Shown: positions 1 to 59,015, counted from the stretch's first letter. The stretch is DNA of 61,803 nt from Dehalococcoidia bacterium (GCA_041494685.1 JBGQBE010000014.1:1-61803), one strand, 5' to 3'. Numbers and translations: made by a program. Notes: generated by a model not told the origin, from the sequence alone.

Positions 1-234
1 AAGTTGCAGTACAAGCTGGCGGCGATGGTGCTGAAGCCAGCGCTGATGGCGATGCGCGACCGGATGGACCCGGGGACGTACGGCGGCGTGCCGCTACTGG
101 GCGTCAACGGATTCGTGATGATCGCGCACGGCGCGTCGGACGCACGCGCGATCAAGAATGCGCTACGCGCCGCGAGCGAGGGCGCACAGTCCGGCATGGT
201 CGACGCGATCCGCGCCGTCCAGGGGCGGCACTGA
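1..234 (+). CDS. plsX: Phosphate acyltransferase PlsX, C-terminal part (runs off window start)
   Basis: MDP..YGGVPLLGVNG.VMIAHGASDARAIKNAL is the PlsX C-terminal signature. Confidence 0.9.
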   Translation, partial: KLQYKLAAMVLKPALMAMRDRMDPGTYGGVPLLGVNGFVMIAHGASDARAIKNALRAASEGAQSGMVDAIRAVQGRH

Positions 235-273
235 GCCGGCCGGGCGTTCCGTCCGCCGATCGCTCCAGGCAAC

Positions 274-792
274 CTAGAATGGCAACCCCTTGAGCCCGTG
301 CACACCCTTGAGCGCGGCGATCTCGCCGGCGTGTTGCGGGACGTGCGTCGCGATGATGTTAGCGAGCAGGAATCCGACGGTGTACGTGCCGGTCTGTCCC
401 TTGAGCTCGCGCGCGATCTCCGCGTCCGGGAGCGCCGCAAGATAGGCATCAGTCGCGACGAACACGGTGCCGGCGTACTCCTGAAACGCGGGCAGTTGCA
501 GCTTCATCGCCGCCGCCCACTCGGCCGAGAGCGCAGGCGGCATACCCGGATACGACACGCCCGTCCGAGAGGCCCAGCCTTGCGCCTCAAAGATGCTGGG
601 CGTCTCCCGAAGCCGTTCCTGGACGAACGCGTCTTCCGCGATGACGGCGTGACAGTAGATCGAAGCGATCGATGTGATCTGCGCACCGGGGAAGCTCTTG
701 TTCAGTACGTCGGATGGGCAGTCCGCAACGATCTGCCCGAGGATACGGTGCCAGAATTCCAGCTGCTGCCGGACGGCCGTCTGCACGTTCAT
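274..792 (-). CDS. DinB-superfamily protein
   Basis: SIASIYCHAVIAED and H...HAGEIAALKG His pattern of DinB fold. Confidence 0.75.
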   Translation of the reverse strand: MNVQTAVRQQLEFWHRILGQIVADCPSDVLNKSFPGAQITSIASIYCHAVIAEDAFVQERLRETPSIFEAQGWASRTGVSYPGMPPALSAEWAAAMKLQLPAFQEYAGTVFVATDAYLAALPDAEIARELKGQTGTYTVGFLLANIIATHVPQHAGEIAALKGVHGLKGLPF

Positions 793-836
793 AGGATCGC
801 GTCTCCGCGGTCATACCGACGATACGCTGCCCGCGC

Positions 837-1376
837 CTACGGCGTGGCGAGGAGTTTGCGGACGAGCGGCGGCATCAGCGCCGCGAGCGGCGATGGCGGC
901 TCGGAGATGTCGTTGACCTCGAATCCGCGCGGCGTGGTGCGCCAGGTGCGGTAGCCCTCGACCTTGATCTTGAGCTTCTTGCAGATGCGCTTGGCGGCCG
1001 CGCCCTGCCCCACCGGGACGTAGAGGTAGAAGGCGGCGTCGGGGATCGCGGCGTAGCGCGACCACGCGCGCTGTGCCTCGCCCTCGTTGACCAGCTCGGT
1101 GGTGGCGACGGCGGCGGTCATCGCCAGTTTCGACTCGCCGGTGCTCAGCTTCTCGATGACGACGATGTCCGGGGCAAGCTGCTCGCGGCCGATCTTGACG
1201 GACATGGTGACGTCGGGGACGTTGGCGTGGGCGCGGTAGCCCGGGTGTTCGGGCGTCGGGAACTTGAAGCGGAGTGCAAGGATCTCACGCACGGCCATGG
1301 CAAGCTGTTCGTCCTGCGTGCGTGCGGTGCGAGTGAGCAGTTGGTCGACGTCTTCCCAGCGGGTATCGAGGCTCAA
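837..1376 (-). CDS. Hypothetical protein, possible degenerate PD-(D/E)XK-like fold
   Basis: Clean 179-aa ORF with host codon usage; APDIVV motif. Confidence 0.6.
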   Translation of the reverse strand: MSLDTRWEDVDQLLTRTARTQDEQLAMAVREILALRFKFPTPEHPGYRAHANVPDVTMSVKIGREQLAPDIVVIEKLSTGESKLAMTAAVATTELVNEGEAQRAWSRYAAIPDAAFYLYVPVGQGAAAKRICKKLKIKVEGYRTWRTTPRGFEVNDISEPPSPLAALMPPLVRKLLATP

Positions 1377-1456
1377 GGCGCCCTCCGGTGCGTGTGTTCG
1401 GGAGTCTGGCTCAGGTTAGTGCAACGGCTCACGAAGCTCAAGCGAGCGGCGAGCGG

Positions 1457-1546
1457 TGGCGGAGGGGGTGGGATTCGAACCCACGGGGCGCTTGCACGCC
1501 CAACCGTTTTCAAGACGGTCTCCATCGGCCGCTCGGACACCCCTCC
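1457..1546 (-). tRNA. tRNA-Ser(TGA)
   Basis: Reverse complement GGAGGGGTGTCCGAGCGG...ACCGT-CTTGAAA-ACGGT, long variable arm, GGTTCGAATCC, ends GCCA; TACAAT -10 upstream. Confidence 0.97.
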
Positions 1547-1645
1547 GCGGCGCCCACATTGTAGCGAAGCGGCCGTCCCCTTCGCGGCGGCGCAACGTTC
1601 GCCCGCCGGAGGCCCCTCCGGTACGATGTGGCGACCGCGGCCCGC

Positions 1646-1673
1646 TACGAACTGCACACTACGGACTACCCAC
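1646..1673 (+). repeat. Heptamer array TACNNAC x4 immediately before GT4 start codon
   Basis: tacgaac tgcacac tacggac tacccac, then tcg ATG at 1677. Confidence 0.75.
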
Positions 1674-1676
1674 TCG

Positions 1677-2966
1677 ATGAAGATCTGCTTCCTCATGTAC
1701 CAGGGCAACATGTACTCGGGCGGGCAGGGCGTGTACCTGTACTACCTGACGCGCGAGCTGGCCCGCATGGGACACGACGTCCACGTCATCGCCGGGCCGC
1801 CGTACCCCACGCTGGACGAGGCGGTGACGGCGCACAACATCCGCGACTACAGCTACTGGACGTATCACCACATGAAGCAGGACTTCATCTTCAACCGGCC
1901 TCCGGCCAGCTACTTCCACCCGTGGAACTTCTACGAATTCGCCTCGACACGGGTCAACCTGTCGTCTTTGCTGGCGAACTTCAGCATCCGCGCCTACTTC
2001 AAGCTGCGGGAGCTGTCGAAGGAGCACCGCTTCGACGTGGTGCACGACAACCAGACGTTGAGCTACGGCGTCTGGGCGATCCACAAGAGCGGCTTCCCGC
2101 TGGTGGCGACGATCCACCATCCGCTGAAGTACGACCTGCGGAACGCGCTGCGCCAGGCGCGGAGCACGTACGAGAAGGCGCGCCGCATCCTCTGGTCGCC
2201 GTGGATGATGCAGGAGTGGGCCGCCAAGGGCGTCGACCGCGTGATCGTGGTGTCGGAGACGTCGCGGGTCGACGTCGAAGAGGCGTTCCAGCTGCCACCG
2301 GAGCGCGTGCGCACGGTGTACAACGGCATCGACACGGAGACCTTTCGCCCGCTGCCGGGCGTGGAGCGGCAGCCCAACAAGCTGCTCTACGTCGGCAACT
2401 CCGAGGACCGGAACAAGGGCGCACGGTTCTTCATCGAAGCGCTGAACCTGCTCAAGGACGATCTCGACTTCCACGTCACGTTCGTGGACAACGAGAAGTG
2501 GATGCTGAAGCTGGTGCCACCCCTGGTCGACAAGTACGGGCTGAACTCCCGCATCGAGTTCACTGGGCGCGTCCCTACCGCGGAGCTTGTGCAGCACTAC
2601 AACGAGGCGAAGCTGCTCGTCACGTCGTCGGTGCACGAGGGCTTCGGCCTGCCGCTGGCGGAGGCGATGGCGTGCGGCACGCCCACCGTGGCCACGGAGA
2701 TCGGCGCGTACAAGGAGATCGTGGAGCACGGCGTAAGCGGTTGGCTGGTGCCGCCGTCGAACCCGCAGGCACTTGCGGAGGCGATCCGGATGATGTGGAA
2801 TGACGCATCGTTGCGCCAGCGGCTGTCGGCGGGCGGCCGCCAGCGGATCGAGCAGAAGTTCAACTGGCGCAAGGCGGCGGAAGAGACGCTGGCGGTGTAC
2901 GAAGAGATCGTGCCGCCGCGGCGCCGGACGTTCACGGCGGCTGGCGCCTCCAAGCCCGGAGCATAG
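1677..2966 (+). CDS. Glycosyltransferase family 4 (GT-B)
   Basis: N-terminal YSGGQGVY motif, EGFGLPLAEAMACG motif; start set by alignment with paralogue at 5780. Confidence 0.92.
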   Translation: MKICFLMYQGNMYSGGQGVYLYYLTRELARMGHDVHVIAGPPYPTLDEAVTAHNIRDYSYWTYHHMKQDFIFNRPPASYFHPWNFYEFASTRVNLSSLLANFSIRAYFKLRELSKEHRFDVVHDNQTLSYGVWAIHKSGFPLVATIHHPLKYDLRNALRQARSTYEKARRILWSPWMMQEWAAKGVDRVIVVSETSRVDVEEAFQLPPERVRTVYNGIDTETFRPLPGVERQPNKLLYVGNSEDRNKGARFFIEALNLLKDDLDFHVTFVDNEKWMLKLVPPLVDKYGLNSRIEFTGRVPTAELVQHYNEAKLLVTSSVHEGFGLPLAEAMACGTPTVATEIGAYKEIVEHGVSGWLVPPSNPQALAEAIRMMWNDASLRQRLSAGGRQRIEQKFNWRKAAEETLAVYEEIVPPRRRTFTAAGASKPGA

Positions 2967-2980
2967 ACGCCACGGCGTCC

Positions 2981-3022
2981 GTTCTGAGTATCCCGAGACA
3001 GGTTCTGAGTTCTAGGTTCTAA
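2981..3022 (+). repeat. Heptamer array GTTCTRN before methyltransferase start
   Basis: gttctga ... gttctga gttctag gttctaa c GTG; units in 7-nt register. Confidence 0.7.
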
Positions 3023-3023
3023 C

Positions 3024-3815
3024 GTGCCAGACAACATCGTCAACATCGATTTCAAGCGCCACTTCCACATCCAGCCGGGCGATCGCGTGCTCGATCTCGG
3101 CTGTGGCAACGGGCGCCACACGATGGAGGCCGCGCGATACCCCGGCCGCATCGTTGGCCTCGACTTTTCGCGCGACGATCTGGTCGCCGCGAAGTTCATG
3201 TACGCCGACCTCGTGCGCCAGGGCAAGCTGAGGGGGCGTGCCGACTTCATCGTCGGAGACGCGCAGAACCTGCCGTTCAAGGACGGCGCCTTCGACAAGT
3301 CGCTCTGCACCGAGGTCTTCGAACACATCCCGGACGACCGCCGCGGCATCGCCGAGTTCATCCGCGTCACGAAGCCGGGCGCGCAGACCGCCGTCAGCGT
3401 GCCCGCGTATTGGCCCGAACGCGCCTACTGGGCGCTGAGCTGGCACTACTGGCACTCGCCCGGCGGCCACGTCCGCTGGTACCGCCAGGGCGAGATGCGC
3501 CGCATCCTGGAAGAGAGCGGCATGCAGGTGGAGTTCGAGCGACGGCGCCACGCGTCGCAGAGCGTCTACTGGTTCCTGCGCTGCATCCACGGCCTGCCGA
3601 ACGAGAACTTCCCGCCGGTGCGCCTCACGTGGAAACTGATCAACGTCCACCACAACCGGCGCTTCAAGCTGCTCGAGTACCTGGAGACGGTCGCGAACCT
3701 CGTCATCGGCAAGGATCTCATCCACTACGGGCGCAAGCGCGCGCTGCCGGTGGCCGCGGCCTCGCGAAACGGGGCAGGCGCGGCGACACCCGCCCACAGC
3801 GCCGGCGAGGGCTAG
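3024..3815 (+). CDS. Class I SAM-dependent methyltransferase
   Basis: VLDLGCGNGRH, GDAQNLPFKDGAFD, EVFEHI motifs. Confidence 0.92.
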   Translation: MPDNIVNIDFKRHFHIQPGDRVLDLGCGNGRHTMEAARYPGRIVGLDFSRDDLVAAKFMYADLVRQGKLRGRADFIVGDAQNLPFKDGAFDKSLCTEVFEHIPDDRRGIAEFIRVTKPGAQTAVSVPAYWPERAYWALSWHYWHSPGGHVRWYRQGEMRRILEESGMQVEFERRRHASQSVYWFLRCIHGLPNENFPPVRLTWKLINVHHNRRFKLLEYLETVANLVIGKDLIHYGRKRALPVAAASRNGAGAATPAHSAGEG

Positions 3816-3820
3816 GCGTC

Positions 3821-5260
3821 ATGCCGCTCGACCGCTTCCAGTCGATCGACCCCGCGCTGCTGGATGTCCGCGCGACGGACCGCGTCATCGACCTGGGGTG
3901 CGGCACGGGGCGGCACGTGCTGGAGCTGGCGAAGTCACCCGGCATCATTCTCGGAGCGGACCTCTCCCGCCACGACCTGCGCGTCGGCCGCTTCTTGCTG
4001 GAGATCATGCGGCGCGACGGCGACGTGCGCGCGAAAGTGCACTGGATGCAGACGGCCGGCGAGCGCCTGCCGTTCGTGGACGGCGCGTTCGACCGCGTGA
4101 TCTGCACCGAGACGCTGGAGCACGTCGACGACGATGCGGTGCTGGCGCGGGAACTCGTGCGCGTGCTGAAGCCGGGAGGCATCCTGGCGGTCAGCGTGCC
4201 GGACCAATATTCCGAGAACGTCTTCTGGAAGCTCTCCAAGAACTACCGCACGCACGCCGGCGGGCACGTGCGCATCTACGGCCGCGGTCAGATCGTGCAG
4301 CTGCTGCGCAATGCGGGGCTGCGGCCCTACGCGGTGCGCTACCGCCACGCGCTGGAGACGGTGTACTGGCTGAGCCACGTCGCGTTCTGGAGCGACTGGG
4401 GCAAGCAAGGGCCGATCACGCGCACGTTCCGGCGGCTGTTGGACTCGCAGAAGGCGCGGCGGTCGCGCATCGTCACGGCGATCGACGACATCGGCAACCG
4501 CATCCTGCCGAAGAGCATCGTGGTGTACAGCCGCAAGCCGCTCGACGCGGGCGCCGCGGCCGGCGAGCATCAGGCGGCCGCCCCGCACACCAACGGTCAC
4601 GCCGCGATGGAGGACGAACGCGCGGCGATCGAGGTGCGTGCGATCCCGGCGCCGTTCGAGATTGATCCCGGGGTACCGGACGCCGCCCGCCAGCCGCACG
4701 CGCCGCCGCTCTCGCTCGACGACGAGCTGCGGATCGCGCTGAAGCTGCCACCGGACGAGCAGAAGGGGCGGCTGATCGAGATCCTGCGGTCGTGCCGCTT
4801 CGCGATGATGCGCGAGGTGCAGCAGTTCTCCGGCGAGCAGGCGTCGACGCCGTGGACGGCTGATGGCCGCACGCTGAAGGAGATCGTCGGGCACATCACG
4901 GGCTGGGAGCGTTGGGTCGTGGCGGCGATTGACGAGATCGCTGCCGGCGTCGCGGAGCCGGCGATCATGTCGCTGGCCGGCTATCCGGACGCACCGAGCC
5001 GATTCGAGAGCGTCGACGCGTTCAACGCGTCGCGGATGAGCGAGGCGCGCGAGCAACCGTGGGCGGACGTGCTGTCGCAGTCCGACGCGGCGTTCGACGC
5101 GCTGATCGCGGCCGCCGAGCGCGTGTCCGCGACGGCGTTCAGTTCGACGGCGCAGTTCTTCTGGCCCGATCTCGGCGGCACCGTCCCGTGCGGCGTCTAC
5201 TTGCTGATGGTGTCGGCGCACCACTACCAGGAGGAGCATCTGCCGGAGATGAGACGGTAG
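3821..5260 (+). CDS. Class I SAM methyltransferase fused to C-terminal DinB/ClbS-like domain
   Basis: VIDLGCGTGRH and ETLEHV in the N-half; TLKEIVGHITGWE...HHYQEEH in the C-half. Confidence 0.85.
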   Translation: MPLDRFQSIDPALLDVRATDRVIDLGCGTGRHVLELAKSPGIILGADLSRHDLRVGRFLLEIMRRDGDVRAKVHWMQTAGERLPFVDGAFDRVICTETLEHVDDDAVLARELVRVLKPGGILAVSVPDQYSENVFWKLSKNYRTHAGGHVRIYGRGQIVQLLRNAGLRPYAVRYRHALETVYWLSHVAFWSDWGKQGPITRTFRRLLDSQKARRSRIVTAIDDIGNRILPKSIVVYSRKPLDAGAAAGEHQAAAPHTNGHAAMEDERAAIEVRAIPAPFEIDPGVPDAARQPHAPPLSLDDELRIALKLPPDEQKGRLIEILRSCRFAMMREVQQFSGEQASTPWTADGRTLKEIVGHITGWERWVVAAIDEIAAGVAEPAIMSLAGYPDAPSRFESVDAFNASRMSEAREQPWADVLSQSDAAFDALIAAAERVSATAFSSTAQFFWPDLGGTVPCGVYLLMVSAHHYQEEHLPEMRR

Positions 5261-5315
5261 TAGGTAGTTTGTAGTGGATGGTGGATGGTCGGTAGTCGCT
5301 AGTTGGTAGTTGGTG
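5253..5315 (+). repeat. Left heptamer array GTNNNTR x8-9 (5' arm of four-helix-bundle cassette)
   Basis: gacggta gtaggta gtttgta gtggatg gtggatg gtcggta gtcgcta gttggta gttggtg. Confidence 0.9.
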
Positions 5316-5316
5316 G

Positions 5317-5676
5317 ATGCAGGACTTTCGTCAGCTCAAGGCGTGGGAGAAGGGGCACGCGCTCGCGCTCGCCGTCTATGGCGCGACGCGGAACTTCCCG
5401 CCGCACGAGCTGTACGGACTTACGGGCCAGATGTGTCGATCGTCGGCCTCAGTTCCGACGAATATCGCCGAGGGCTGCGGGCGCAGCTCGATCGCCGACT
5501 TCCGCAAGTTCCTCGACTACGCCATGGGCTCGGCAAAGGAACTGGAGTACCAGCTACTGTTATCCCGCGATCTGGGCTACCTTCCAGCTGGAGACCACGA
5601 ACGCATGCTGCTGGATGTGGCGGAGGTCCAGCGGATGCTGGCGGGCTTCATGACGAGATTGCGACCAGCACAGTGA
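5317..5676 (+). CDS. Four helix bundle protein (23S rRNA IVS-protein / bAvd-like family)
   Basis: MQDFRQLKAWEKGHAL...FPPHELYGLTGQMCRSSASVPTNIAEGCGR...AMGSAKELEYQL family signature. Confidence 0.95.
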   Translation: MQDFRQLKAWEKGHALALAVYGATRNFPPHELYGLTGQMCRSSASVPTNIAEGCGRSSIADFRKFLDYAMGSAKELEYQLLLSRDLGYLPAGDHERMLLDVAEVQRMLAGFMTRLRPAQ

Positions 5677-5713
5677 CAACGTTCCGACCCGTTTCCAACC
5701 GCCCGTCTCCCCC

Positions 5714-5776
5714 TACGCACTCCCAACTACGCACTCCCGACTACCAGCTACCAACTACCCACTCCCGGCTCTCGTC
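5714..5776 (+). repeat. Right heptamer array TMCNNRC x9 (3' arm, reverse complement type of left array)
   Basis: tacgcac tcccaac tacgcac tcccgac taccagc taccaac tacccac tcccggc tctcgtc. Confidence 0.9.
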
Positions 5777-5779
5777 CCT

Positions 5780-7054
5780 ATGAAAATCGCCTTCATCATG
5801 TACCAAGGCAACATGTACTCCGGGGGGCAGGGCGTCTACCTCCACTACATGACACGCGAGCTGGTGCGCGCGGGGCACGAGGTACACGTCATCTCGGGGC
5901 GGCCGTATCCGCGACTGTCGGAAGGCGTGATGCACCACAAGCTGCACACTTACAGCTTCTGGGCGTTCCTGAACGGCCGCGACGAGCACGCGTACGACCA
6001 CGCGCACAACCCGGCGGAGTTCTTCCACCCGTGGAACTTCTACGAGTTCGCCTCGACGCGGGCGTCGCTGGCGGCGCTGTTCTTCACGTTCAGCGTGCGC
6101 GCGTACAAGAAGCTGGCAGAGATCGAGGCCACGTACGGGCCCTTCGACCTGGTGCACGACAACCAGACGCTGGGCTACGGCATCCTGGCGATGAAGCAGT
6201 TTATGGGGAAGCCGGTCGTCGCCAGCCTGCACCACCCGCTGGCGATCGACAAGGCGAACAACATGCGCGAGGCGAAAACCGTGATCTCGCGCGTGCAGAA
6301 GGAGCTGTGGTTCCCCTGGAAGATGCAGTCGTACGTGGCGAACCGCATCGACATGGTGCTGACCGGGTCGCAGAACTCCGCGCACAGCGTCAGCGCATCG
6401 ATGGACATCCCGCTGTCGCACATCCGCCAGACGCCGTATGGCGTCGACCAAGAAGTGATGCGGCCGATCCCGGGCGTGGCGCGGCAGCCAGGCACGATCC
6501 TCTTCGTCGGCGACTCGGAGGATCGCAACAAGGGCGCGCGCTTCCTGATCGAAGCGTGCGCGCGGCTGCAACACGAGATGGACTTCCGCCTGCTCTTCAA
6601 GGACAAGAAAGAGCAGGACATGAAGGTCGTGCCGCCGCTGGTATGGAAGTACGGCCTGCAACGCTTCGTCGAGTACATCCCGCGGCTCGAGGTCGACGAG
6701 CTGCTGCGGCTCTACAACAGCGCCCAGATCGTCGTGTCGCCGTCGCTGTACGAGGGGTTCGGCCTGCCGGCGGCGGAGGCGATGGCGTGCGGCACGCCCG
6801 TGATCGCGACGACGGCGGGCGCGTTCCCCGAGTTCATCGAGGACGGTCGCACGGGCATCCTGGTGCCGCCGGGCGACCCGGACGCGCTGGCCGCCGCCAT
6901 CAAGTCGCTGCTGTCCGACCCGGAGCGCTGCGCGCGCATGGGCGCGGCCGCGAGCGAGCACATCCGCACGAACTTCACGTGGAAGCGCACGGCCGACATC
7001 ACGCTGGATCTGTACGGCGAAGTGCTGGGCCGCGCGAAGGCGCCGGCCGCGTAG
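5780..7054 (+). CDS. Glycosyltransferase family 4, paralogue of 1677..2966
   Basis: MYQGNMYSGGQGVYL, FHPWNFYEFASTR and SEDRNKGARF shared with first copy; EGFGLPAAEAMACG. Confidence 0.92.
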   Translation: MKIAFIMYQGNMYSGGQGVYLHYMTRELVRAGHEVHVISGRPYPRLSEGVMHHKLHTYSFWAFLNGRDEHAYDHAHNPAEFFHPWNFYEFASTRASLAALFFTFSVRAYKKLAEIEATYGPFDLVHDNQTLGYGILAMKQFMGKPVVASLHHPLAIDKANNMREAKTVISRVQKELWFPWKMQSYVANRIDMVLTGSQNSAHSVSASMDIPLSHIRQTPYGVDQEVMRPIPGVARQPGTILFVGDSEDRNKGARFLIEACARLQHEMDFRLLFKDKKEQDMKVVPPLVWKYGLQRFVEYIPRLEVDELLRLYNSAQIVVSPSLYEGFGLPAAEAMACGTPVIATTAGAFPEFIEDGRTGILVPPGDPDALAAAIKSLLSDPERCARMGAAASEHIRTNFTWKRTADITLDLYGEVLGRAKAPAA

Positions 7055-7116
7055 CGGGATGGCCTCATCCGGGCCGCTGTTCCATCGTCATTCGAGACAA
7101 GGTCGCCGCGTGGCCG

Positions 7117-7713
7117 TCAGTCGACGTCCGACCACTCGTCCGGCGTGAGGTCCAGCGGCAGCTCTGCGCCGTCGGCGGGCTCACCGAGCGCGGCCGCTGC
7201 CGGCTCGGCTTCGAGCGACGCGGCAGGCGCCTCCGCAGCGGGTGCTGACCGGCGAACGGACGCCGGCTTCTGTCTGCCCGGCTTCGGCGCGGGCTCGGGC
7301 GCAGGTTCGTCACGCAGCACCTGCACGAGCTGGACGCTGAGGCCATGCGTCGCGGCCATGGTGACGAACGCGGAGCGCAGGCCCGGCTGCGCTTCCACGG
7401 GCTCGCTGACGCGCACGCCGCGCGATGTCAGCTCGGCGACGGCCGCGCCGAGATCCTCGACTTCCAGCGCCAGCGTGTAGAAGCCCTCGCCTTTGCGCTC
7501 CAGGAATCGCATGACAGGGTTATCGGGCTCCGCCGGCGCCACCAGTTCCAGCACGCTGTCGCCCAGCGCCAGCTCGACCGCACGCACGCCGAATGCCGGC
7601 ACCGGCGCAGCGCCGTCGAGCGCCTGCGCGCCGAAGAGTTGCTCGAACGTGCCGCGCGCGGCGTCGACGTCGCGGACGGCGATAGTCAGATGGTGGACGC
7701 GGGTGATCTTCAT
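7117..7713 (-). CDS. VOC-family protein (methylmalonyl-CoA epimerase-like) with low-complexity tail
   Basis: VHHLTIAVRD, LELVAP, RFLERKGEGFYTLALEV motifs. Confidence 0.8.
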   Translation of the reverse strand: MKITRVHHLTIAVRDVDAARGTFEQLFGAQALDGAAPVPAFGVRAVELALGDSVLELVAPAEPDNPVMRFLERKGEGFYTLALEVEDLGAAVAELTSRGVRVSEPVEAQPGLRSAFVTMAATHGLSVQLVQVLRDEPAPEPAPKPGRQKPASVRRSAPAAEAPAASLEAEPAAAALGEPADGAELPLDLTPDEWSDVD

Positions 7714-7778
7714 GGGCGCTCCGCCCCATGCTATCGCGGCAACACCACGGGAAGGAAGGCGGCGTTTCCGCGACCGGA

Positions 7779-9083
7779 TCAGGGCGTCGTCTCGTGGCAC
7801 ACACCCACGTCGTCATCTTCGTTGCCGTAGACCGTGTTGCCGCTCGCCATGACGGTACCCGCGTGATAGATGCAGATCGCCGAGCCGCGGTTCTCATAGA
7901 TCGTATTGCCGTCGACGCTGCCGAGCGACGTGTTCACGTACGAGACGCCGATGCCGCGATTGTGGTAGATCCGCGAGTTCGAGACGTCGAGGTTCGCGCC
8001 CTGCCCCAGCACGCCGCCACCCAGGGTACGAGTCTGCGGCAGCACGACGGTGTCGTGGATATCGGCGTTGTTGATGCGGCCGACGGCCCGTACGGGAAAG
8101 CGGGTGCCGACCTTGCCGTATTTCAGCGGGTCAGGGTACGCGCGAAACTCGATGGCGTGCTCCTCGTTGGCCGCGAACTCATCACCCTCGGAGGAGATGG
8201 TGGCGCCCCAGACAAACAGCCCGGTCAGTTCATTGCGCCAGATGTGGTTGCGGTGAAATGTGCCAATGGTGCCTGGGAACATGACGATGCCCGTGCTGCC
8301 GCTGGCCTGCACGACGTTCCCATCCAGGATGATGTTGGCGGAGCCGACGTAGGCCGCCAGGTTCGTGAGATAGCAGTCTGGCACTTCCACGAAGCCCGGC
8401 GGCAGCAGCGCGCAGGGCGTCTGCCCGGCGAAGACGCCCGGGCCCTTGTTGTCCGAGATGATGTTGCGTGTGATCGTCGTTGTGGCGGTCTCGCCCACGG
8501 TGGAGACGCCGACGCCGCCGTTGTTGAACACCCAGTTCCGCTCGACCGTCACGTTGGATTTGCGACGGATGAGGATGCCATCGCCGTCCATCGCGTACAC
8601 GAACGAGTCGCTGACGCGACCGGTGCTGCCGACATCGTAGTGGATGCCCAGCGCGCCGCCACCGACGTCCATCGCGCGGAAGTCGATCTCGGTACTTAGC
8701 CAGATGTAGGCGTTGCTGGGATGGCCGTAGAACAGGGTGAAGTCCTGGAACGTCAGGTTGCTGCTCTTGAAGACGAGCAAGGAGTCGTGGCTGCCGCCCG
8801 CCACGATCGAGACGTGTGTGCCGGCACCCTTGAGTGTGATGTTGTGCTTGTCCTGGAACGTCACGGAGCCGACGTAAACACCCGGCGCCATGCAGATGAC
8901 GTCGCCGTCCGCGGCGGAGTCGATGATGCTCTGCAGGCTACCCGGCGCCGCCGCGCGCGTGCAGTCGACATTCGCGGCACTCGCGCGCGGCGCGGCCGAC
9001 AGCGGAGCGCGGGGCGCAAGCATCATCGCGCACGATGCGATCAGCAGCAACAGCAGTGAGAAGAGGCGTCGCGTACCCGTCAT
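7779..9083 (-). CDS. Secreted right-handed parallel beta-helix protein
   Basis: Signal peptide, LQSIIDSAADGDVICMAPGVY, repeated N(I/V)..N...G(I/V) units. Confidence 0.8.
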   Translation of the reverse strand: MTGTRRLFSLLLLLIASCAMMLAPRAPLSAAPRASAANVDCTRAAAPGSLQSIIDSAADGDVICMAPGVYVGSVTFQDKHNITLKGAGTHVSIVAGGSHDSLLVFKSSNLTFQDFTLFYGHPSNAYIWLSTEIDFRAMDVGGGALGIHYDVGSTGRVSDSFVYAMDGDGILIRRKSNVTVERNWVFNNGGVGVSTVGETATTTITRNIISDNKGPGVFAGQTPCALLPPGFVEVPDCYLTNLAAYVGSANIILDGNVVQASGSTGIVMFPGTIGTFHRNHIWRNELTGLFVWGATISSEGDEFAANEEHAIEFRAYPDPLKYGKVGTRFPVRAVGRINNADIHDTVVLPQTRTLGGGVLGQGANLDVSNSRIYHNRGIGVSYVNTSLGSVDGNTIYENRGSAICIYHAGTVMASGNTVYGNEDDDVGVCHETTP

Positions 9084-9379
9084 CCTTGACCTCCCTGCAT
9101 CCCCCCAGGCGCGAAGCGGTGCCCCGATCCTACCCGGAGTGCGGCAGCCTACTCAAGCGAGGTAGCAGGGAGAGCATCGCCGGCGGCACATGGTACAAGC
9201 GGCAACGTCGCGTCTCGCCGCCGACACATGAAGCCATGAGCGGGCCTCACGGCTGTTTCAGCATGGTTGGAGAATAATCACGGGTATCGCGAGACCGCCA
9301 TCTCGCGCCCGAAGCACGCCGATGGGCGCGCACAAGCGGGCCCTCCTCGCGGGCGAACGCATCACGGGATGGACCGGGG

Positions 9380-11077
9380 TCATCCGAGCAGCGAGCGGGC
9401 GGCAGCGGCAGCGCCGCTGAGCGGCACGACCTGCGCGTCCTTCTCGGTGCGGCGCTTCACCTCCGCGCCGCCATTCTCGATGCTGCGCGGGCTGACGGTG
9501 ACGCGCACGGGCATGCCCAGGAGGTCGGCGTCGTTGAACTTCACGCCGGCCGAGCCTTCCTCGCGGTCGTCGTACAGCACTTCGAGACCGGCATCGACGA
9601 GCTGCTGGTACACCTGTTCGGCACTCTCGCGCACGCCTGGTTTGTCGAATCCGAGACCGACGAGGTGCACGTCGTACGGGGTCAACTCGCGCGGCCAGGT
9701 GATGCCGCGCTCGTCATGGTTCGCCTGGATGGCGGCGGCGAACACGCGGCCGACGCCGATGCCGTAGCAGCCCATGATCGCGGACTTAAGCTCGCCCGCT
9801 TCGTCGGAGAACGCGGCTCCCAACCGGTCGGTGTACACGGTGCCGAGCTTGAACACGTGCCCCATCTCCATGCCACGCTTCGTCTCGAGCATGCCGCCGC
9901 AGCGCGCGCAGCCGTCGCCGGCGCGCGCGACCGAGATGTCGGTGATGAGGTCGGCCTGCCAATCGCGGCCGTGGTTGACGTTGCGGTAGTGCACGTCCGG
10001 CTTGTTCGCACCGGCGACCAGGTTAGGCGACGTGAGCACGGAATCGTCCGCGACAACCTTGATGCCCTTCAGCCCCACGGGCGATGCGGAGCCGGCGACG
10101 AGCCCGTGCGTACGCACGCCCTGGTCGTCCAGCAGCGCAAGGTCCACCGCCTTGAGCGCGTTGCGAAGTTTCGACTCGTTCACCTCGAGGTCGCCGCGGA
10201 TGGCGACGAAGACGGGCGCGCCGCCGGCCTCGTAGAACACGGCCTTGAGCGTGCGCTCGTGAGGGATGCCGAGGAAGCGCACCAGGTCGTCGATCGTCTT
10301 CTGACCGGGGGTGGAGACCTCTTCGAGGGGCAGCGGGGCGTCGGCGTGGCCGGGGCGCTTGCGGTGATCGGCCTTCTCCTCGTTTGCCGCGTAGCCGCAG
10401 GTGTCGCAAAGCAGGATCGTGTCCTCGCCGACTTCGGTAAGGTACATGAACTCCTCGCTCTCCTTGCCACCGATGGCGCCTGAGTCCGCCAGCACGGGGA
10501 TAGTGGGGACGCCGCAGCGCTCGAAGATGCGCGCGTAGGCGTCGCGCGCGGCGTGGTAGCTCCGGTCCAGCGCGTCCCAGTCGGTGTCGAAGCTGTAGGC
10601 GTCCTTCATGGTGAACTCGCGAACGCGCATGAGGCCGCCGCGCGGACGCGCTTCGTCCCGCATCTTGGTCTGGATCTGGTAGATCATCAGGGGCATGTCG
10701 CGGTAGCTCTGCACCTGCTTCTTGAACAGGTCCACGACCACTTCCTCGTGCGTGGGCCCCAGCACCAGGTCGCGGTCACGGCGATCCCTCAGGTGGAACA
10801 GCACGTCGCCCATGGTGGCTATGCGGCCGGACGCCTCCCAGAGCTCGGCCGGTTGCAGCGCGGGCATCACGACTTCCTGCCCGCCGGCACGGTCCATCTC
10901 CTCGCGGATGATCTGCTCGATCTTGCGGATGACGCGCCAGCCGATCGGCAGGTAGCTGTAGACGCCGGCCACGAGCTGCTGCACCAGCGCGGCGCGGAGC
11001 ATGAGCTGATGGTTCGCGGTGTCCGCGTCCGCCGGGGCGTTCCGCAGCGTCTTCCCGAAGAGTCGCGACATGCGCAT
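9380..11077 (-). CDS. proS: Proline--tRNA ligase
   Basis: MRMSRLFGKTLR, LGPTHEE, RPRGGLMRVREFTMKDAYSF, MGCYGIGV. Confidence 0.98.
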   Translation of the reverse strand: MRMSRLFGKTLRNAPADADTANHQLMLRAALVQQLVAGVYSYLPIGWRVIRKIEQIIREEMDRAGGQEVVMPALQPAELWEASGRIATMGDVLFHLRDRRDRDLVLGPTHEEVVVDLFKKQVQSYRDMPLMIYQIQTKMRDEARPRGGLMRVREFTMKDAYSFDTDWDALDRSYHAARDAYARIFERCGVPTIPVLADSGAIGGKESEEFMYLTEVGEDTILLCDTCGYAANEEKADHRKRPGHADAPLPLEEVSTPGQKTIDDLVRFLGIPHERTLKAVFYEAGGAPVFVAIRGDLEVNESKLRNALKAVDLALLDDQGVRTHGLVAGSASPVGLKGIKVVADDSVLTSPNLVAGANKPDVHYRNVNHGRDWQADLITDISVARAGDGCARCGGMLETKRGMEMGHVFKLGTVYTDRLGAAFSDEAGELKSAIMGCYGIGVGRVFAAAIQANHDERGITWPRELTPYDVHLVGLGFDKPGVRESAEQVYQQLVDAGLEVLYDDREEGSAGVKFNDADLLGMPVRVTVSPRSIENGGAEVKRRTEKDAQVVPLSGAAAAARSLLG

Positions 11078-41492: not shown

Positions 41493-41508
41493 AGCTTCGC
41501 TTCAGCCG
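41486..41508. terminator. Perfect hairpin at azlD end
   Basis: CGGCTGAAGC-ttc-GCTTCAGCCG; no clear U-tract. Confidence 0.5.
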
Positions 41509-41585
41509 AACAGACAACAGAAGGGTGCGCCCACGAATCTGTTGTCTGTTGTTCGTCTCTGTTGTCTGCTCTCTGCTGTCTGTTC
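41508..41585. repeat. Inverted heptamer cassette CAACAGA / TCTGTTG
   Basis: gaacaga caacaga ... tctgttg tctgttg .. tctgttg tctgctc tctgctg tctgttc. Confidence 0.85.
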
Positions 41586-41600
41586 TACACTTCCGGCACC

Positions 41601-50754: not shown

Positions 50755-50771
50755 GCGTACTTCCCTTCGGG

Positions 50772-50878
50772 AGAACCAAGAACTCAGAACCTGGAACCTG
50801 GGGGTTGGAACGAGTGAAGTTGGACGGTTAGGTTCTTGGTTCTAAGTTCTTGGTTCTTGGTCGTCGGTTCTTGGTTCT
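50772..50878. repeat. Inverted heptamer cassette AGAACCW / WGGTTCT
   Basis: agaacca agaactc agaacct ggaacct, 30-nt spacer, aggttct tggttct aagttct tggttct tggtcgt cggttct tggttct. Confidence 0.9.
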
Positions 50879-50894
50879 GGCGCGCGAAGCGCTC

Positions 50895-51907: not shown

Positions 51908-51916
51908 ACTGGACGG

Positions 51917-51999
51917 AGAACCAAACCAAGAACCTAGAACCCAGAACCTAAGACCGGCGCTCTGTCGGCCCCGATCCTATGTCCTGGGTTCTGCGTTCG
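51917..51999. repeat. Degenerate AGAACCW / GGTTCT inverted heptamer cassette in tRNA spacer
   Basis: agaacca aacca agaacct agaaccc agaacct ... cgatcct atgtcct gggttct gcgttcg. Confidence 0.7.
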
Positions 52000-54614: not shown

Positions 54615-54695
54615 TGGAATCAGAAACCGGAAACTGGGACCCGGGCGTCTACGTGCCCCTGCCCCGAGTCTCCAGTCTCGAATTTCCAGTCTCCA
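54615..54695. repeat. Inverted heptamer cassette YGGARAC / GTYTCCA
   Basis: tggaat cagaaac cggaaac tgggacc ... gtctcca gtctcga atttcca gtctcca. Confidence 0.7.
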
Positions 54696-54708
54696 ATTGG
54701 GCCCCGGA

Positions 54709-57191: not shown

Positions 57192-57860
57192 ATGGTCACG
57201 AACCTGATCGGGCAGTCACCGGCCGCGTTCCTTCTCGCATCGATCCTGATCATCCTTGCGCCCGGGCCGGACATGGCGCTGGTGGCGCGGAACACGATCG
57301 CGCGCGGGCGCGGGGCGGGATTCGTCACGGCAGGCGGGGCGATGGCGGGCGTGAGCGTGCACGTGACCGCGGCGGTCGCCGGGCTGTCGGCGCTGCTGAC
57401 GAGTTCGGCGTACGCGTTCTCGATCGTGAAGCTGGTGGGCGCCGCGTACTTGCTGTACCTGGGCGCGCGGACGCTCTTGGCGTCGCGGCACACCGCGCGG
57501 CACGACGACCTCAACACCGAGGCGGAGATCTTCGGTGAGACGTCGACCCGGCTAGTCCTGGCGCCGTCGTCGCCGGCGCTGCAGGGGATGCTCTCGGCGG
57601 TGCTGAACCCGAAGCTGGCCGTCTTCTTCCTGACGTTCCTGCCGCAGTTCGTCGACCCGTATCACGCGCCGGAGGCGAGCATGCTGGCGCACGGTGCCGT
57701 GTTCATCGCGATAGCGTGCATATGGATGACGGTGTGGGTGCTGACGCTCGACGGGCTGTCGGGCGTGTTCCGGCGGTCGCGGGTACGGGCGTGGATGGAG
57801 CGCGCGACGGGCGCGGTGCTGATCGGCATGGGCGTGCGACTGGCGCTGGCGCGGCGGTAG
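57192..57860 (+). CDS. LysE/RhtB-family translocator
   Basis: PGPDMALV, KLVGAAYLLYLG, LNPKLAVFF..FLPQF. Confidence 0.93.
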   Translation: MVTNLIGQSPAAFLLASILIILAPGPDMALVARNTIARGRGAGFVTAGGAMAGVSVHVTAAVAGLSALLTSSAYAFSIVKLVGAAYLLYLGARTLLASRHTARHDDLNTEAEIFGETSTRLVLAPSSPALQGMLSAVLNPKLAVFFLTFLPQFVDPYHAPEASMLAHGAVFIAIACIWMTVWVLTLDGLSGVFRRSRVRAWMERATGAVLIGMGVRLALARR

Positions 57861-57894
57861 TGGGCAGTCGGTAGTTCGTAGTGGGTAGTTTGTA
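57860..57894 (+). repeat. Heptamer array GTNNGTA x5 after LysE stop
   Basis: gtgggca gtcggta gttcgta gtgggta gtttgta. Confidence 0.85.
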
Positions 57895-57896
57895 GG

Positions 57897-59015
57897 TTAC
57901 GCGGGCCCGGGGGGCGGACCGGGGGGGCGCTGCGGCTGCGGAGCCTCGCCGCCACCCGCACTCTCGCCGCCCTCGGGGCTGCCGCCTTCGCGGCGGCGCT
58001 GCCGGCCGCCACGGCGGCCGCGGCGGCGCCGCTTCTGGCCATCGGGGCCGGCGGCGCCCTCTGCGGCGACAGCGGCCTCGGCGCCTTCGGCGGCTTCCGC
58101 TTCGCCCTCTGGTGCGGCGGCGCCCTCCGGCTGGGGCGCGCGCTCGCGCTTCAGCGGCTCCTCGATCTGGCGCACGAGTTCGACGGGGCGCACGGTGAGG
58201 CCGTACTGCATCTGCAGCTCGGTCACAGGCATCTCGACGACCTGCTTCTGCTCGGTCAGCCACAGGCGCACGGTCTTGCGCAGCACGTTGACGCTGTTGA
58301 TCTTCGCTTCGCCGGCGGGCGTGGAGACCATCGTGCCGACCTTCGGCATCTGGCCGCGCAGCTCGCGGTAGCCCTCGTACTCGAACGTCAGGCAGCAGTA
58401 GAGGCGGCCGCAGACCCCGGAGATCTTCTGGGGGTTTAGCGGCAGGTCCTGCTCCTTCGCCATCTTGATCGAGACGGAGGGGAAGGAGGTCTGCCACGAC
58501 GCGCAGCAGAGGCGCTGGCCGCAGACGTCGTAGCCATCGAGCAGCTTGGCGCGGTCACGCTCGCCCACCTGCAGGAACTGGACGCGCACGCCGAACGTGG
58601 ATGCGAGGTCGCGCTGGAGCGTGCGGAAGTCGGCGCGGTCGGCGGACGTGAAATAGAACGTGATCTGCGACCCCTCGAGGTCGTACTCGCCGGAGATGAT
58701 CTGCATGTCGAGGCCGTCTTCGGCGACGCGGTGCTTCGCCTCGCGCATCTCCTCGGCGGCCTGTCCGCGCAGCTCGTCGCGCTTGGCGAGATCCTCCGGC
58801 GTCGCGACGCGGGTGATGCGCTTCAGCGACTCCTTGATCTCGCTGACGAGCACCTGGTCGGGCGCGACGACGACGCGGCCGATCTCGAGCCCGTGCGACG
58901 TCTCGACGACGACGTAGCTGCCGACATCCAGGCTGGATTCGCCCGCGTCGAAGTAGTAGATCTTGCCGGCTTCCTTGAAGCGCACCCCGACGGGCACGCG
59001 CTGGCTGTCGCTCAT
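57897..59015 (-). CDS. ricT: PSP1-domain RicT/YaaT-family protein
   Basis: VGVRFKEAGKIYYF, FYFTSADRADFR, CGQRLCC, MAKEQDL.LNP.KISGVCGRL.CCL. Confidence 0.9.
   Translation of the reverse strand: MSDSQRVPVGVRFKEAGKIYYFDAGESSLDVGSYVVVETSHGLEIGRVVVAPDQVLVSEIKESLKRITRVATPEDLAKRDELRGQAAEEMREAKHRVAEDGLDMQIISGEYDLEGSQITFYFTSADRADFRTLQRDLASTFGVRVQFLQVGERDRAKLLDGYDVCGQRLCCASWQTSFPSVSIKMAKEQDLPLNPQKISGVCGRLYCCLTFEYEGYRELRGQMPKVGTMVSTPAGEAKINSVNVLRKTVRLWLTEQKQVVEMPVTELQMQYGLTVRPVELVRQIEEPLKRERAPQPEGAAAPEGEAEAAEGAEAAVAAEGAAGPDGQKRRRRGRRGGRQRRREGGSPEGGESAGGGEAPQPQRPPGPPPGPA

Follow-up and report, generated by a model that had tools for sequence, protein, structure and literature searches.

Why should a small gene, lodged between two protein-coding genes of a Dehalococcoidia bacterium, be enclosed by two inverted arrays of a seven-nucleotide repeat? 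The stretch of DNA analysed here (the window; 61,803 nucleotides, GCA_041494685.1 JBGQBE010000014.1:1-61803) carries on its plus strand a methyltransferase gene fused to a DinB/DUF1706-like domain (3821..5260 in our own gene model, with an approximate start), a four-helix-bundle gene of 119 codons (5317..5676) and a family-4 glycosyltransferase gene (GT4; 5780..7054). The 5′ arm (5253..5315, plus strand) consists of nine phased heptamer units with the AG-type strand on the plus strand and the consensus GTAGTTG, written in the family phase NN-A-G-NNN; the methyltransferase stop codon TAG (5258-5260) falls within its first units, and the ATG of the four-helix-bundle gene at 5317 follows its end at 5315. 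A spacer (5677..5713, plus strand), aperiodic except for its last 7 nt, leads from the stop codon of this gene to the 3′ arm (5714..5776), nine phased heptamers that form the inverse complement of the 5′ arm, have their AG-type strand on the minus strand and end 3 nt before the GT4 ATG (5780). A sequence-only reading of the locus had already described both arrays. Its nine TMCNNRC-type units from 5714 to 3 nt before the GT4 ATG are confirmed (8/9 fit the pattern), and so are the phased units at 5253-5315, although its description of the latter as mostly GTNGNTA was slightly generous (4/9 are exact, while 8/9 fit GTNNNTR).

The cassette sits between two protein genes and not inside an rRNA gene: positions 1-10000 of the window gave no rRNA match, in an assembly that lacks 23S rRNA, and scans with Rfam and with promoter and terminator models found no match at the arms. 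Two further arrays of the GTAGT unit are present in the window, namely a lone 3′-type arm (1644..1675, minus strand) directly before a paralogous GT4 gene (ATG at 1677), and a dispersed array without a gene (57856..57898, plus strand) between two converging genes.

The enclosed ORF belongs to a well-populated protein family, matching PF05635 (E 4.5e-35, 120.5 bits against a cut-off of 33.8) and TIGR02436 (E 8.9e-34, 116 bits against a cut-off of 24). Its predicted structure (pLDDT 96) comprises four helices and superimposes closely on Xcc0516 (2GSC; TM 0.95, rmsd 1.1); it also matches BT_0352 (2RLD) and Avd, the accessory protein of diversity-generating retroelements (DGRs; 4DWL, 8UB7), the latter with a TM of 0.78 at 13% identity. 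The solved relatives 2GSC and 2RLD contain five chains each and by analogy point to a homopentamer; a four-copy complex prediction scored 0.34 against a mark of 0.42. The protein has no known catalytic motif, and no partner enzyme was identified: among 7,998 scored candidates, the 12 longer homologues were sporadic fusions only, none of them recurrent. Six polar residues, Q38, S45, N49, E52, S72 and E75, are nearly invariant in the family and may point to a site for a partner or for catalysis. The genome (97.6% complete) contains no match to the reverse transcriptase model RVT_1 or to Y1_Tnp (PF01797), these being the two families searched for, and for them the result agrees with the earlier remark that the window lacks a reverse transcriptase and a transposase.

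The two arms are able to pair with each other, as had been proposed. Between 5000 and 6100 the longest inverted repeat is that of arm against arm (41 nt, 73%), and the arm–arm duplex (-60.5 kcal/mol) is stronger than that of dinucleotide shuffles (-47.7 +/- 4.8 kcal/mol), only 2/500 of which equalled it; the pair probability is split among three registers spaced 7 nt apart. The fold of the entire region (5245-5785; -227 kcal/mol, z -2.28) was equalled by 1/100 shuffles.

Comparison with related genomes identifies the cassette as a discrete and optional insert. Among the 23 family genomes with an orthologous GT4 gene, the full gene with its arms is found at the orthologous site in eight (G000, G002, G006, G007, G010, G019, G023 and G021); a short 5′ gene fragment remains between the arms in two (G001, and G017, where another gene lies upstream); the methyltransferase gene is adjacent and the cassette gene absent in three; a short clean junction is seen in two (G008 and the outgroup G022); and a different upstream gene without a cassette is present in the other eight. 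In three other families the methyltransferase and GT4 genes abut at 6/7 loci, and G024, a relative, has a full cassette at the paralogous GT4 junction, where the window has its lone arm. The empty site that the sequence-only reading had proposed looking for thus exists and the gene is not fixed there, with the proviso that empty and filled alleles are too diverged for the ends of the cassette to be defined. The arm unit at the site varies between genomes, being of the GTAGT type in six and of the ACAGTT type in G006 and G021; within each genome the left and right arms agree, both switching unit together. In G007, G010 and G023 the GT4 gene has no ATG, and the 3′ arm lies in frame from an upstream GTG, so that it appears to be translated as the start of the GT4 protein. 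It is important to point out that G021 is unpublished; it contributes one of the eight full site copies, counts of 23 (GTAGT) and 15 (ACAGTT) in the array survey below and at most six of the 360 genes of the family-wide sample, and no conclusion depends on it.

Where it is present, the gene appears to be inherited vertically, under purifying selection, and is lost by truncation or deletion. In close pairs its dN/dS is 0.04-0.10 (dN 0.042 and dS 1.11 for G010/G023; 0.088 and 0.84 for G019/G002), with a dS above that of its neighbours and a lower GC3, and the best tree places seven of the site copies in a single clade, a grouping without support (20/88). The gene is patchy in its distribution (found in 26/41 relatives).

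Inverted arms are common among the sampled members of the gene family. All three PF05635 genes of this genome have them, each with a unit of its own, and the other copies are ~32% identical to that of the window. A wider collection of 431 loci yielded 419 HMM hits and, with 24 partial, 23 short-flank and 12 duplicate entries dropped, 360 usable genes, a sample biased toward relatives and best hits; period-7 arrays flank the gene on both sides in 243/360, at a score (>=8) reached by 2% of shuffled flanks and by 12/502 distant windows. This strong enrichment bears out the expectation of inverted 7-mer arms genome-wide and in homologues. A reversed-pattern control was discarded, since GA recurs at period 7 in the arrays as well and robs it of independence. 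Compared as inverse complements, the left and right arms of one element agree at 5.73 of 7 positions, against 3.63 for mismatched pairs. When 238 elements with matched arms were selected, their unit fell into the phase NN-A-G-NNN (G 94%, A 74%), and the two arms had medians of 4.4 and 4.6 units; the 122 left-out elements include 41 with period-8 arrays on both sides, 39 with one heptamer arm and 17 with neither. The sequence-only reading had itself named three outcomes that would count against it, and for each the opposite was found: the arms fold better than shuffled controls, homologues are enriched for them and some relatives lack the gene at this site.

Does the protein read the repeat? 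Co-variation between gene and unit indicates that it probably does, as had been surmised. Residue 103 and unit position 3 form the top co-varying pair (APC-corrected, z 8.4): A occupies position 3 in 153/155 elements whose protein has Glu103, as in the window, and in 40/83 of those without Glu; Xcc0516 has Leu at the equivalent place. Counted over tree-independent pairs on all branches (trait, A fraction; threshold 0.15), the association holds in 24 and is reversed in 1 of 37, making it the strongest of 6,328 residue–base tests; on well-supported branches only, with the residue-103 column removed from the tree, the count over 14 pairs is 5.0 against 0.2 (median p 0.0625), and the 15 other residue–base pairs tested there all stay well short of significance. 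Since the genomes are related to each other, p values overstate the strength of such associations. The dependence is equal in each arm (0.92 vs 0.49 and 0.90 vs 0.43). Adenine can donate its N6 amine to a carboxylate, and guanine O6 is repelled by it; this fits a glutamate that excludes G on the AG strand and not on its complement. Weaker signals at helix-4 residues 99, 105, 106 and 110, and at residues 2, 59 and 62, close to an end of the bundle, may serve as leads only. A code linking residue 2 to unit position 5 (Q-T, K/R-C, E-G and Y-A), drawn from 31 close relatives, failed in the wider set and on well-supported branches, with only Q2-T5 reappearing weakly (z 4.4); candidate specificity residues 12, 14, 34, 59, 70, 74, 105, 107 and 8 were likewise unsupported on well-supported branches.

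One aspect overlooked in the sequence-only reading is that the arm unit belongs to a genome-wide repeat family tied to the gene. Dispersed heptamer repeats are known from bacteria, the cyanobacterial STRR being an example. This genome contains 163 oriented arrays, compared with 8-11 in shuffled genomes, and 153/163 are intergenic according to our own gene calls, where they occupy 125 gaps. A single orientation is found in 108/125 of these gaps, and those with both orientations have them in cassette order (17/17); arrays prefer convergent to divergent gaps (30 vs 14), and 68 of them have their start no more than 30 nt from a stop codon. Typing of 153 arrays gave ACAGACA (21), TGGTGA/TGGTCG (20), GTAGT (18) and AGAAC (17), with 55 unclassified. 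The three commonest named types are the units beside the three PF05635 genes of the genome; no cognate gene was found in this genome for the AGAAC type.

The same correspondence is seen between genomes. Across 25 family genomes, three-unit matches to GTAGT number 12-40 in each of the six that have a gene with GTAGT arms; of the 19 others, 18 have 0-8 and only G021, with 23, has 12 or more. A test of four patterns in five genomes across phyla, in other groups, returned zero in 16/16 off-diagonal cells and 168, 20, 6 and 153 on the diagonal, where five of the six matches in G324 lie in its own cassette and one outside. Array load in the family follows PF05635 gene number (rho 0.71, n 25). There are exceptions in either direction: G008 has 42 matches to the TCAGC type with no PF05635 gene found, the same type is abundant without a known cognate gene in G001 (55) and G006 (37), as is the ACAGTT type in G007 (32), and G016 has no strict ACAGACA match although its gene has ACAGACA arms. 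Overall, the scattering of a unit through genomes that hold the matching version of the gene suggests that the protein recognises the repeats and helps to spread them.

The explanation that best accommodates these observations, to which we give a little less than an even chance, is a self-recognising pairing of gene and repeat, akin to REP/RAYT systems, with a non-catalytic ring protein. An Avd-like pentamer would bind some 4-5 units on the AG-type strand, one per subunit, with Glu103 on helix 4 selecting A3; the co-variation and the fold together make this step quite probable. The strand symmetry described below tips the balance slightly toward both arms being binding sites on opposite DNA strands, probably single-stranded, and not a site and its antisense in mRNA. 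The distribution of the arrays, with a similarly narrow leaning, favours a resident protein that brings about or stabilises the transfer of copies of its own unit to further gene boundaries by host repair or recombination enzymes, the likelihoods of these three steps not being independent of each other. Such copying would hold the two arms in agreement and supply the genome with cognate arrays, which would decay after loss of the gene.

The arms might instead act in RNA. According to this alternative, which we consider unlikely, the cassette is an intervening sequence of the mRNA whose arms pair and loop the gene out, with RNase III cutting the stem and the ring binding the RNA of the 5′ arm, as TRAP would, to regulate its own or downstream translation. 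The TRAP attenuation protein is a ring that holds one short purine-core repeat per subunit at a 5-nt period and regulates RNA in response to a metabolite ligand; its likeness to the PF05635 protein would lie in ring and repeat, the fold is different, and the comparison is an analogy only. Besides the stability of the arm duplex, the RNA reading can draw on the position of the elements, given that 98/159 with long flanks lie between co-oriented genes and that the upstream stop codon is a median of 0.5 nt from the start of the arm. RNase III is encoded in the genome, and a precedent exists in Coxiella burnetii's 23S helix-45 intervening sequence (IVS), where, according to PMC4990558, tandem heptamers stand ahead of a gene from this family and the first of the repeats is where RNase III cleaves. 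Avd, too, is an RNA binder, sequence-specific and with flipped bases held between all five protomers, as described in the available parts of bioRxiv 10.1101/2023.10.23.563531 and PMC6182149.

The pattern of substitutions speaks against this reading. On the mRNA sense strand of the arms G·U pairs show no excess over A·C (283 vs 270), the bias that an mRNA stem would leave being absent, and the sense and antisense duplexes have equal energies. With each arm read on the strand opposite to the other's, profile, degree of motif conservation and dependence on Glu103 are the same for both. At the AG core, departures from the motif go the other way from what RNA pairing predicts: the 3′ arm is not richer in G4-to-A changes (10/1307 vs 20/1234), and it is richer in A3-to-G changes (108/1067 vs 72/1037, p 0.01). 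The G·U comparison has its own caveats: with multiple registers, selection on any one wobble pair might be weaker, conversion could hide it, and the set comprises no rRNA-located copies that could act as positive control; the order of units agrees slightly between the arms (96 vs 72, p 0.02), which fits pairing or conversion alike. The in-frame 3′ arm of GT4 in G007, G010 and G023 also sits poorly with a role in RNA, and the dispersed arrays that occupy their gaps in one orientation, without a partner, are left unexplained by it. The earlier idea of arms maintained so as to pair in the mRNA is therefore not upheld; under the REP/RAYT-like reading an mRNA stem can still form and may be cut by RNase III as a by-product.

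A more doubtful alternative treats the whole cassette as the mobile unit, inserting gene and arms at new junctions by host recombination without a transposase, with the dispersed arrays as scars of gene deletion. Some gene-less sites are indeed true scars: gene fragments survive in G001, G017 and G000:C2, those of G001 and G017 between intact arms, and one junction retains a C-terminal remnant of the gene together with an arm. The invariable cassette order of two-orientation gaps and the clustering of copies at paralogous junctions point the same way. The gene does reach new places, if slowly, as both flanks are common to 17/20 homologue pairs with at least 80% identity (neither flank in 1/20) and neither is shared in 31/64 pairs at 70-80%. 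Near-identical copies at different sites were, however, not encountered in the sample, those of G017 being 66-72% identical, which speaks against recent whole-gene transposition. Among the GTAGT sites listed for G019 and G010, a subset of 20 per genome showed no gene remnant (0/40); 36 could be mapped onto this genome, where none met the GTAGT rule, nine had another or a mixed array and 27 had no array. G019 and G010 share only 2/20 of their sites, and lineage-specific arrays coexist with a gene fixed at one site. About 7/14 unfilled orthologous junctions in this genome are clean, and at two loci (L460, L462) the arms enclose a host hairpin that is kept in a genome without those arms. Of the mobile cassette proposed earlier, the discrete and optional element stands, in empty, truncated and full states, and the ready mobility does not, given its apparent inheritance at fixed sites under purifying selection.

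That the heptamers are an independent, host-made family and the protein a host-beneficial binder, such as a translation or nucleoid factor, which co-evolves with the common unit and regulates itself via the flanking copies, is improbable: the long purifying selection on the gene in place and the persistence of arrays in genomes without a detected gene agree with it, but three genes with three different matched arm pairs in one genome, the patchiness of the gene, the correlation of array load with gene number and the turnover of array sites between lineages do not.

Several components of this picture are already in print, namely the occurrence of the protein in rRNA IVSs, the heptamers of the Coxiella IVS, the homology to Avd and dispersed heptamers without a binder, and the comparisons that follow draw on parts of the sources cited. 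The cassette resembles the ORF-bearing IVSs of 23S rRNA (Coxiella burnetii; Leptospira as cited in PMC4990558) in its PF05635-family gene, terminal inverted repeats and heptamers before the start codon, as well as in its patchy distribution and ORF decay (PMC4990558). It differs in its location at a junction of protein genes, in the DNA-level symmetry of its arms and in the membership of its unit in a genome-wide family, whereas the accessible text of PMC4990558 mentions heptamers at the 5′ end only and no dispersed copies. With REP/REPIN-RAYT systems (bioRxiv 10.1101/2021.07.10.451892) it has in common a low-copy extragenic gene, here apparently inherited vertically at a fixed site, flanked by its cognate repeat, and a dispersed extragenic repeat population, often in inverted doublets, that decays without the gene, with several gene–repeat pairs per genome. 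Unlike those systems, it has no HUH/tyrosine transposase (PF01797 was not found in the genome), its units are tandem non-palindromic 7-mers instead of palindromes, the doublets of this genome have, by inspection, no shared spacers, as REPINs would, and, in contrast to RAYT, the PF05635 gene reaches new sites over long times. DGR Avd has the same fold and, as a pentameric barrel, binds nucleic acid sequence-specifically with bases between protomers; it shares only 13% identity, acts beside a reverse transcriptase of which this genome has none (RVT_1) and binds one stem-loop, compared with tandem heptamers here. Insertion sequences and MITEs differ in having near-identical copies at several sites. 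The cassette thus lies outside the IVS, REP/RAYT and DGR families, being built like an IVS and distributed like REP/RAYT.

The dispersed heptamers GGGAATC of Xanthomonas and GGGGAYT of Nostoc (Rehm 2015, PMC4692102) and TAACTGA of Beggiatoaceae (MacGregor 2015, PMC4679880) are likewise 7-nt tandem intergenic units with about four per array, occur in inverted pairs and are rare between divergent genes. They also share the polarity seen here, with the purine-rich strand as the coding strand after stops or the non-coding strand before starts. The origin and binder of those repeats were left open in the parts of PMC4692102 and PMC4679880 consulted, the main texts of which do not contain the term 'helix bundle', whereas the unit of the window is tied to a resident PF05635 gene. 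The homology of PF05635-type proteins to Avd has been noted (PMC10053308), and stray copies of the gene occur inside cas operons (PMC3936711); a link from gene to heptamer does not appear in the available parts of bioRxiv 10.1101/2024.02.27.582315 or PMC8700078. Full-text searches, with subscription journals mostly outside their range and supplements excluded, returned no paper that links a PF05635 gene to flanking or dispersed heptamers.

These comparisons join two old questions, the role of the very common '23S rRNA intervening-sequence protein' and the source of bacterial 7-base repeats. Tentatively, and with rather less than even confidence, PF05635 proteins may be sequence-specific rings that define and propagate the dispersed heptamers of many bacteria (STRR-like, GGGAATC, TAACTGA), amounting to a replicator without a transposase, nuclease or reverse transcriptase of its own and with a partly readable residue-to-base code; rRNA IVSs would then be a particular instance in which the element came to lie in rRNA, and Avd of DGRs a family member that was co-opted. 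If the protein does drive the spreading, repeats would have a new way to multiply and to rewrite the ends and starts of genes. The system offers a 119-residue protein, a candidate ligand of 30-60 nt, a candidate specificity residue (Glu103) with its base (A3) and natural swap pairs. As to the capture of other cargo between arrays, 20 neighbouring array pairs 150-2500 nt apart were of mixed orientation (7 RR, 5 RF, 5 FR, 3 FF) and the idea was set aside; three inward pairs have a common unit, two of them around PF05635 genes and one around two unrelated genes.

The operon that holds the cassette (1677-7054) encodes two GT4 glycosyltransferases and two methyltransferases, one of the latter fused to a DinB/DUF1706 domain, and lies directly downstream of a tRNA-Ser(TGA) gene on the minus strand (1457-1546). 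Close homologues of this operon occur in four of the five families of the order.

Two further PF05635 copies are present in the same genome. The second (L002, contig C2, 87118-87435), which carries an in-frame TAG, is located in a tandem run of genes that resemble acyl-CoA dehydrogenases, as named from a reading of the flanks; in relatives, such runs contain up to four PF05635 copies. At a junction near L002, just a C-terminal remnant of the gene and one arm are left. The third copy (L003, contig C57, 11154-11471) precedes a gene that we take, from its N-terminus, to be trpS-like, and relatives from several families carry related copies at this junction, with differing units. One small cluster of eight members (P0011) joins PF05635 to an HNH domain (PF13391).

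Heptamer arrays also occur without the gene. Within the window, such arrays with other units were found at 41505-41600, 50768-50885, 51915-51965 and 54620-54700, comprising an ACAGACA doublet, which precedes a start codon, an AGAAC doublet and single, and a GGAGAC type. In a family relative (G008), long TCAGC arms are present, and a PF05635 gene was not detected in the genome. At L433, L434 and L443, other palindromic repeats, REP-like in appearance, lie between gene-less arms. A terminator-like hairpin is conserved across genomes when loci L460 and L462 are compared with contigs C5 and C29 of the window's genome, and the arrays on either side of it are of another type or missing in that comparison.

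Ten arrays in the window's genome lie inside called genes (our own gene calls; contigs C7, C8, C9 and C20); these are mostly of the ACAGACA type and apparently in frame or close to gene ends. A TAG lying upstream nevertheless keeps the phase of the AG core (family phase NN-A-G-NNN) in 21 of 39 cases in which the unit itself contains no stop codon, against about six expected. Finally, of the 122 genes without called heptamer arms, which lie outside the 238 elements chosen for matched arms, 41 (L045, L060 and L062 among them) are flanked on either side by period-8 arrays; the length of the arm unit can therefore shift.
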